Shown one piece after another: positions 48,502 through 48,838 of a stretch of 64,000 nucleotides of DNA; position 1 is the first letter of the stretch, and each line of letters opens with the position of its first letter. The notes under the pieces are model-generated. The model saw only the letters and a list, made by a program, of their open reading frames with translations, ran no database searches and was not told the origin of the DNA. Origin of the DNA: a virus. The translations under genes and the position numbers were made by a program. Location of the stretch: IMG/VR virus record IMGVR_UViG_3300043080_000191, one strand, 5' to 3'.

Positions 48502-48838
48502 CTTTTATTGGACTATCTCTTTCACAATAATCTACTGAGAGTTATTACTTCGATTATTGCTAGAATGCGCTACGGGACAGTGCATCTCCATCCCTCTCAA
48601 AACTTTTATAAAAAGTTTTATTTAGTCTCTACACTCCAATAAATTTTATTAAAGCACGGTATTGCAAAGTCCAACCATATTTCAGGCCACTCGTTCTCTT
48701 AGTCAGCTGATTCGTGTTTATATTTTTTTTGATAAACCTTATTTTGCTGATACCGTTAGCATAATTTTTTTTTAATTACACACCCTTTAGCAAGGTTCAC
48801 ATTCTTTATTTACAACTCGGCAATATCAATATTAGACT
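48502..48838 (-). mobile_element. ORF-less group I intron (about 337 nt) in dnaE at the PDIDID motif
   Basis: Exon 1 ends ...ERVELG(GGU). Intron nt 18-24 GCCGAGU pair with the exon end ACUCGGU, giving P1 with a U-G wobble at the 5' splice site. R-like GUGUAGAGACUAAAU and S-like AAGAGAUAGUCC (P7 GACUA/UAGUC) are present. The intron ends ...AAUAAAAG (omega-G) before GAUAUUGAU (DIDIDI). The spliced product 'ERVELGDIDIDICPSKR' matches E. coli '[17 protein letters not shown]'. Confidence 0.7.

Follow-up and report, generated by a model that had tools for sequence, protein, structure and literature searches.

The DNA analysed here, referred to below as the window, is the whole 64,000-nucleotide stretch of the IMG/VR virus record IMGVR_UViG_3300043080_000191. 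Its minus strand carries a dnaE gene, encoding the alpha subunit of DNA polymerase III (Pol III), that is interrupted at 48502..48838 by a segment read in an initial annotation as a group I intron without an open reading frame (ORF). Our analysis agrees with that reading and gives it a probability of about 0.9: the segment (intron 1) would be a group I intron in dnaE, the splicing of which restores the reading frame, and it would have lost an endonuclease gene of its own. The evidence comes from near-identical alleles that lack the intron, from homologues at the same site that bear an endonuclease gene and from a full, covarying ribozyme core. The sequence comparisons show the boundaries of the intron, its pairings and their covariation, its homology to endonuclease-carrying introns, its optional presence and the ORF restored by its removal.

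The insert in dnaE and its boundaries

Three minus-strand ORFs (48806..50182, 47302..48429 and 44735..46006) were found by their Pfam domains to be consecutive parts of one Pol III alpha gene. The first ORF contains the PHP domain and DNA_pol3_alpha profile positions 20-100, the second DNA_pol3_alpha positions 130-259 and the finger domain, and the third HHH_6. The exons and the elements associated with them are as follows.

48839..50182, minus strand: dnaE exon 1, with the PHP domain and the start of the palm; its 3' end, GAA CUC GGU (E L G), is set by comparison with L047, L048 and L078, which lack the intron
48839..48854, minus strand: putative co-conversion tract at the end of exon 1, compared with 3177..3192 of the intron-less allele L047
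48502..48838, minus strand: intron 1, a predicted group I intron of 337 nt without an ORF, identified from intron-less alleles, pairings and covariation
47309..48501, minus strand: dnaE exon 2, which starts GAU AUU GAU, with two Asp at the positions of E. coli D401 and D403
46095..47308, minus strand: intron 2, a second predicted group I intron of 1214 nt with a GIY-YIG ORF at 46256..47203 (315 amino acids, aa), precisely absent from L047, L048 and L078
44735..46094, minus strand: dnaE exon 3, with HHH_6 and the C-terminal part

Read on the minus strand, exon 1 ends at 48839 with GAACTCGGT, encoding E-L-G, and exon 2 begins at 48501 with GATATTGATATTGATATATGT, encoding D-I-D-I-D-I-C. ORF 1 reads past the exon end and is closed by a stop after 11 codons of intron sequence. 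None of the three forward frames of the insert is free of stop codons, and the longest same-strand ORF in it is 22 aa. Joining 50182..48839, 48501..47309 and 46094..44735, which requires the removal of the second intron as well, gave a single ORF of 1298 aa with 0 internal stops, and the exons contain neither a frameshift nor a stop. The first splice junction aligned without gaps to residues 357-420 of E. coli Pol III alpha, to Taq Pol III alpha and to the uninterrupted 1284-aa DnaE of Enterococcus phage VRE9_3. By alignment position, the two Asp residues directly after the junction correspond to D401 and D403 of the E. coli enzyme, which we take to be catalytic residues.

The limits of the insert, as placed by the pairing of the exon 1 end with the intron (P1) and by the terminal G, are correct to the base because the three alleles L047, L048 and L078 lack exactly these 337 nt. 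For several kb to either side, the DNA of these alleles shares 97-98% identity with the window, and what they lack is precisely 48502..48838 and 46095..47308. When IMG/VR was searched with the peptide that spans the spliced junction, 52 related loci were obtained, in most of which the junction is contiguous; beyond the three alleles, about 40 relatives are uninterrupted. Intron 1 is an optional element among close relatives.

The last 16 nt of exon 1 differ from the intron-less alleles by five synonymous changes, and the next 180 nt by none. The window version of this tract, GAGAGAGTCGAACTCGGT, also lies beside the intron in distant intron-carrying contigs. Such a tract is what flanking co-conversion during homing would be expected to leave. 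One contig, L075, has the same exon tract and no intron, which could reflect either precise intron loss or an ancestral homing site.

The initial annotation had described an insert of about 337 nt without an ORF, with boundaries that proved accurate to the base against the near-identical intron-less alleles. It had also placed the three ORFs collinearly in one DnaE and predicted that splicing restores ERVELG-DIDIDIC to match E. coli, and both points were borne out by the joined ORF and the gapless alignment. Its exon layout was right for the first insert as described, but a second, endonuclease-encoding group I intron between ORFs 2 and 3 needed to be added.

Splice-site pairings and the predicted ribozyme core

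The elements proposed to define the splice sites are listed here.

48815..48821, minus strand: internal guide sequence GCCGAGU (intron nt 18-24), predicted to form P1 with the exon sequence ACUCGGU (48839..48845)
48822..48828, minus strand: P10 candidate UGAUAUU (intron nt 11-17), which can pair with GAUAUUG, the first 7 nt of exon 2 (48495..48501)
48502..48509, minus strand: 3' tail AAUAAAAG with the terminal G at 48502; no P9 hairpin

P1 is a helix of 7 bp (ACUCGGU/GCCGAGU) with a U.G pair at the splice site. The guide sequence was found to track the exon in relatives (ACUAGGU/GCCUAGU, ACUGGGU/GCUCAGU, UGCCU/GGGCA, CUGCCU/GGGCAG, AUGGGU/GCUCAU and GGGUGGU/GCCACCC), with guide-exon covariation that spans at least six different exon contexts. 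P1, with a guide that follows its exon, is the most telling helix of the structure. The P10 candidate lies directly 5' of the guide sequence. Searching for P1-like pairings without constraints proved non-specific, as alternative 7-mers arose by chance; the intron-less allele was therefore used to fix the splice site, and the first 60 intron nt, shuffled with their composition preserved, provided the control. A 7-bp P1 was obtained in 6% of these shuffles, and a P1 together with an adjacent 7-bp P10 in 0.025%. The final G is also present in each of the 13 relatives for which the 3' end is defined, and in the window-type relatives (listed below) it stands directly before GAT ATx GAx.

In the splicing and catalysis that we infer from these pairings, the dnaE transcript would fold into a group I core in which the guide GCCGAGU pairs with the last seven bases of exon 1, placing the U.G pair of P1 at the cleavage site. 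A free guanosine bound in P7 would attack the 5' splice site, and the terminal G would next take the same P7 pocket. P10 (UGAUAUU with GAUAUUG) would hold exon 2, and the exons would be ligated to restore ...ERVELG-DIDIDIC..., the palm motif that contains both catalytic aspartates.

The predicted core comprises the following elements.

48798..48804, minus strand: P3 5' strand GAAUGUG, pairing with CGCAUUC at 48563..48569
48782..48796, minus strand: extra hairpin P3.1, CCUU-GCUA-AAGG, inside the family-invariant AACCUUGCUAAAGGGUG, between P3 and P4
48759..48781, minus strand: second extra hairpin P3.2, GUGUAAUU...AAUUAUGC, with a covarying stem
48656..48756, minus strand: P4-P5 domain, with P4 ACGGUA/UACCGU, P5 UCAGC/GCUGA and the Q-like element AAUACCGUGC
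48716..48737, minus strand: P5a, a hairpin inside the P4-P5 domain
48665..48692, minus strand: P5b, a hairpin inside the P4-P5 domain
48634..48654, minus strand: P6 hairpin CUUUAAUAA-AAU-UUAUUGGAG, with a 3-nt loop where relatives have an endonuclease ORF of about 830 nt
48623..48629, minus strand: P7 5' strand G[A]GACUA (R element, bulged A), pairing with the S element UAGUCC at 48510..48515
48599..48619, minus strand: P7.1, a hairpin between P7 and the P3 3' strand
48574..48594, minus strand: P7.2, a hairpin between P7 and the P3 3' strand
48524..48560, minus strand: P8 hairpin GCAAUAAUC...GAUUAUUGU, from folding and pair counts

Covariation was evaluated with RNAalifold on an alignment of ten relatives in which the ORF loops were masked; P1, P7 and P8 were added by hand before pairs were counted, and in the slid controls the pairing partners were moved by 1-3 columns. 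RNAalifold recovered P3, P4, P5 (with its two internal hairpins), P6, P7.2 and the two P3-P4 hairpins, in a structure in which 34 of 64 pairs were compensatory. With P1, P7 and P8 included, 94.5% of cells paired, relative to 36-41% in the slid controls, and changes on both sides were seen in 40 of 82 pairs, relative to 5-13. None of 500 shuffles matched the observed pairing values. For the window copy alone, the minimum free energy fold had a z of -3.84.

The order of the elements is P3, P4-P6, P7, P3 3' strand, P8 and P7 3' strand, in which P3 and P7 cross to form a pseudoknot. Pairing is kept in all seven sequence variants of P3, including CCGAUUG/CAGUCGG in an nrdD-type member; a first candidate for this helix, GGGUGU with GCAUUC, was dropped for the covariation-supported GAAUGUG/CGCAUUC. 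P3.1 has a compensatory variant (CUCU-GCUA-AGAG) in L090/L091, and a C-G pair of P4 becomes U-A in L005/L041. The R-like element GUGUAGAGACUA and the S-like element AAGAGAUAGUCC lie in intron 1, and both GUGUAGAGACUAAAU and AAGAGAUAGUCC were found in the insert on the minus strand. The outer pair of P7, beside the bulged base, is G-C, A-U or U-A in three subfamilies. All window helices are intact, with lengths of 7 (P1), 7 (P3), 6 (P4), 5 (P5), 9 (P6), 6 (P7), 7 (P7.2) and 9 bp (P8). The spacing between P1 and P3 is only 10 nt, with no P2, and the 8 nt that follow P7 form no P9 hairpin. The 17-mer AACCUUGCUAAAGGGUG (48780..48796) is nearly invariant across the intron family, and the L7.2 loop (48579..48587), which is GAGAUGCAC in the window, is otherwise invariant as GAGAUAAGCAC.

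Several points weigh against the interpretation of the insert as a group I intron that splices. Splicing itself is a prediction from sequence. No Rfam family reached its gathering score in the scan of the window. Profile hidden Markov models of the family (5' and 3' halves, nhmmer) had no significant similarity to the intron of T4 td, which is the textbook self-splicing group IA2 intron and encodes I-TevI; only the S element gave a match, at E=0.11. The absence of P2 and P9 and the presence of two unusual P3-P4 hairpins depart from the textbook IA2 layout. Finally, most members of the alignment were found via the conserved 17-mer, so that its invariance is partly an ascertainment effect.

When the search with the Rfam group I model RF00028 was limited to 381 nt, a match of 14.3 bits (E=0.29) was obtained that ends exactly on the terminal G, and group II and other Rfam families gave no match even at E<=10. 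A set of 14 relatives, including the annotated intron of phage EF1, gave 0 Rfam hits at gathering score. As a control, the T4 td intron was given 40.3 bits by RF00028 relative to a cut-off of 50, and only its 3' half aligned. An Rfam miss is therefore not diagnostic for such phage introns, because the proven td intron also falls below the cut-off. The initial annotation had named a missing Rfam group I hit as grounds for refutation; no gathering-level hit occurs, but the td control makes this yardstick invalid. Its other statements on the fold were upheld: P1 has the U.G wobble at a splice site fixed by the intron-less allele, the R- and S-like elements form P7 (G[A]GACUA/UAGUCC) with a covarying outer pair, and the last base of the insert, 48502, is G.

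Membership in IA2 by homology was dropped, as the nhmmer comparison to td was not significant. On its predicted structure, intron 1 is filed as IA-like with no subgroup assigned, because P7.1 and P7.2 are td-like but P2 and P9 are missing and the P3-P4 hairpins are present. The name 'P3.1' is among the optional group I pairings (PMC3873408).

Relatives of the intron and competing explanations

The shared 17-mer AACCTTGCTAAAGGGTG was found in 44 IMG/VR stretches, 41 of which clearly contain the same element. The members were sorted as follows.

Window-type, same dnaE site: L029/L089, L003/L020/L023, L037, L011/L027 and L009/L028; also L090/L091, with a variant of the 17-mer
EF1-type, same dnaE site: L005/L013, L041/L044 and L006
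Members in other genes: including an nrdD-like gene, at ...ATGGGT|TGCAGA (MG|CR)

The introns at the same dnaE site span 0.85-1.17 kb in relatives, and those of the window type 1.04-1.17 kb. An intact GIY-YIG endonuclease ORF of 216-261 aa is present in the P6 loop of L029/L089, L003, L020 and L009, and the endonuclease ORFs of L037 and L011 are broken. The relatives with the intact ORF resemble the window intron in ribozyme-core identity (about 85-89%), in an identical design of P1 and P10, in an identical flanking exon tract and in having no P2 or P9, whereas the P6 loop of the window copy is only 3 nt. The window core is about 89% identical to those of L089 and L090, the single difference of any size being the approximately 830 nt in the P6 loop. 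The P6 stem CUUUAAUAAAA/UUUAUUGGAG is kept on both sides of this comparison. As judged from this comparison, the window copy is most likely a deletion derivative that lost its endonuclease gene with the P6 loop; the opposite direction, a gain of the endonuclease gene in the relatives rather than a loss in the window copy, appears less likely. The family would home into the dnaE site by means of its P6-loop endonuclease, of the GIY-YIG or HNH type. Because the window copy has no endonuclease gene, its spread would be only passive, by recombination or by an endonuclease acting in trans. ORF-less copies and trans mobilisation ('collaborative homing') have been described (PMC3984707).

A 65-nt stretch of the insert was the only blastn match of a 701-nt region in annotated phages, to the dnaE genes of EF1 and EF5; megablast of a 12-kb region against annotated phages gave no match. 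In a blastn search of the same phages with a compact family member, only four marginal matches were obtained, to Enterococcus hirae phages. Among annotated phages, the intron family is essentially unannotated. Scanning species-representative bacterial genomes with the 17-mer gave 15 matches, 13 of them by chance and 2 real, namely L100 (Faecalibacillus sp. CAVAGP010000036.1) and L102 (Lachnospiraceae metagenome-assembled genome CAVKBL010000002.1). The L102 intron is again at the dnaE site, with P1 CUGCCU/GGGCAG. These two members hint at gut Firmicutes as hosts, and their contigs could be binned phage sequence. The window has a G+C content of 32%, and the IMG/VR relatives are contigs of 110-200 kb. 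A scan of viral contigs with GAGATAAGCACN7GNAG, for members without the 17-mer, was abandoned, as there were only chance matches among the matches listed.

The alternative that survives best, although at a probability below one in ten, is that intron 1 is decayed and either does not splice or depends on a helper, which would make dnaE a pseudogene or a poorly expressed gene. The loss of the endonuclease gene, the missing P2 and P9, an L7.2 loop (GAGAUGCAC) that departs from the family consensus (GAGAUAAGCAC) and the decay seen within the lineage in L037 and L011 are consistent with this. However, the window copy retains all of its core helices intact, and the layout without P2 and P9 is common to relatives with intact endonuclease genes. 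The exons are also free of frameshifts and stops, and dnaE, the gene for the replicative polymerase, is intact in all relatives.

Considerably less probable is a genuinely split dnaE gene, the pieces of which are translated separately and assemble, with the 337 nt as an intergenic spacer. The six-frame translation does give three ORFs, and a possible start codon exists for each of them. In the middle ORF, however, no ATG occurs until 24 codons past the DIDID motif, and therefore without splicing the catalytic aspartates would be in no polypeptide and none would carry an intact active site. Moreover, this supposed spacer has a conserved and covarying group I fold and is precisely absent from genomes that are 97-98% identical. 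Another type of insertion is the least probable of all: other ways of interrupting replication genes are known but nothing specific favours one here, an intein is excluded by the stop codons in all frames, a group II intron is opposed by the lack of any group II match in Rfam at E<=10 and by a length of 337 nt that is too short, and all of these, a translational bypass element and a small transposable element included, are opposed by pairings that are those of a group I intron, including the P3/P7 pseudoknot, the splice-site U.G and the terminal G, and by the absence of terminal repeats or a target duplication at the insert boundaries.

With intron 1 taken as a group I intron, we tentatively propose, as a possibility that we consider doubtful at present, that, together with its relatives in dnaE, nrdD-like and other genes (about 40 IMG/VR contigs or more), it belongs to a structurally distinct IA-like subclass. 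Its features may be the lack of P2 and P9, two P3-P4 hairpins (one within the near-invariant 17-nt element) and the invariant L7.2 loop. A tertiary contact between the 17-mer and L7.2 is possible, and it may replace the missing peripheral domains. This class of intron is not picked up by current covariance models. If the proposal is true, too few group I introns would systematically be annotated in phages of gut Firmicutes, and replication genes would be miscalled as fragments.

The members in nrdD-like genes (L014, L021, L030, L032 and L034) have various endonuclease ORFs or none. In the window itself, nrdD (41814..44066, minus strand) contains STMGCRT and is uninterrupted.

Known systems and other introns in dnaE

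A literature search on group I introns in dnaE or Pol III genes found no paper describing one in the library that was searched. The closest annotated counterparts are in phages EF1 and EF5 (MF001358 and MF001361), the insert ORF of which is annotated 'HNH homing endonuclease # Phage intron'. The insertion point is the same as in the window, directly 5' of the codon for the first Asp in the DxD motif, and the elements AACCUUGCUAAAGGGUG, GCUAACGGUA...AAUACCGUGC, GAGAUAAGCAC and GAUAUAGUC are shared, as are the P3, P4, P7 and P7.2 pairings, with compensatory changes. The EF1 dnaE gene is also interrupted at the second site of the window. Unlike the window intron, that of EF1 is 846 nt long with an HNH ORF in the P6 loop, a P9 hairpin and a P1 of UGCCU/GGGCA, and the host proteins of EF1 and the window are only about 40% identical.

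The T4 td intron resembles the window intron in its location in a gene for a phage DNA-metabolism protein, in having P7.1 and P7.2 between P7 and the P3 3' strand, and in its Q (AAUCCCGUGCUAAAUU), R (AACGACUA) and S (GAGAUAUAGUCU) elements. The td intron and the relatives of the window intron have a GIY-YIG endonuclease in the P6 region, whereas the window intron has no ORF. Other differences are that td has P2 and an extended P9, with only UAAA between P3 and P4 and no hairpins there. Small ORF-less phage introns comparable to that of the window include the one in Twort orf142. Introns in phage DNA polymerase genes (SPO1/SP82, Bastille and Pf-WMP3) follow the same logic of insertion in the conserved catalytic region of a replication gene, but these polymerases are of family A (Pol I-like), whereas the window gene encodes the family C Pol III alpha. 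Introns are located at conserved regions of the DNA polymerases and ribonucleotide reductases of phages, and of their terminases (PMC3984707, PMC2814812).

Intron 1 belongs to a well-known kind of element, and knowledge of the group I mechanism is unchanged by it. Its value is mainly for annotation, and further as part of a natural intron-plus/intron-minus homing system. Gene callers would give this replicative polymerase as three fragments and a stray endonuclease, and the usual Rfam scan would provide no correction. The locus is a natural system of near-isogenic phages with and without each of the two dnaE introns. The combination of an endonuclease-less copy, endonuclease-bearing relatives and a putative co-conversion tract could serve the study of the invasion, decay and loss of homing introns. 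With this site, a family C polymerase joins the replication enzymes in which mobile introns target the catalytic codons that are most conserved.

The second dnaE intron of the window lies between ...GYSFSV and IHALAYS, and it has a P1 of AGCGU/GCGCU, a P7 of U[C]GACUA/UAGUCA and the 3' end AAUAAUG; it gave no Rfam match either. The two introns were found in all four combinations of presence and absence among relatives (L047-L098): intron 1 absent and intron 2 present in L049-51, L057-60, L062 and L065, intron 1 present and intron 2 absent in L089, both present in the window and L091, and both absent in L047 and others. By this distribution, the two dnaE introns assort independently.

The dnaE gene in this phage group is an intron hot-spot, in keeping with the known tendency of homing elements to favour replication genes that are conserved (PMC3984707, PMC2814812). 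At a third dnaE site (...ADANG|LMRL), L066 has an insert of 1064 nt (4002..5065) with a GIY-YIG ORF of about 246 aa. This insert is absent from the 95% identical L064, and its 5' end, GGCCCTTACACACTTTACC, is like that of the second window intron. A different, ORF-less group I-like intron of about 200 nt was found in L097 (about 3186..3390), 3 nt downstream of the window site, where it follows the GAT of the first Asp codon. It matches RF00028 at 25.5 bits (E=1.5e-4) and is unrelated to the window intron; therefore, more than one intron lineage targets the DxD codons.

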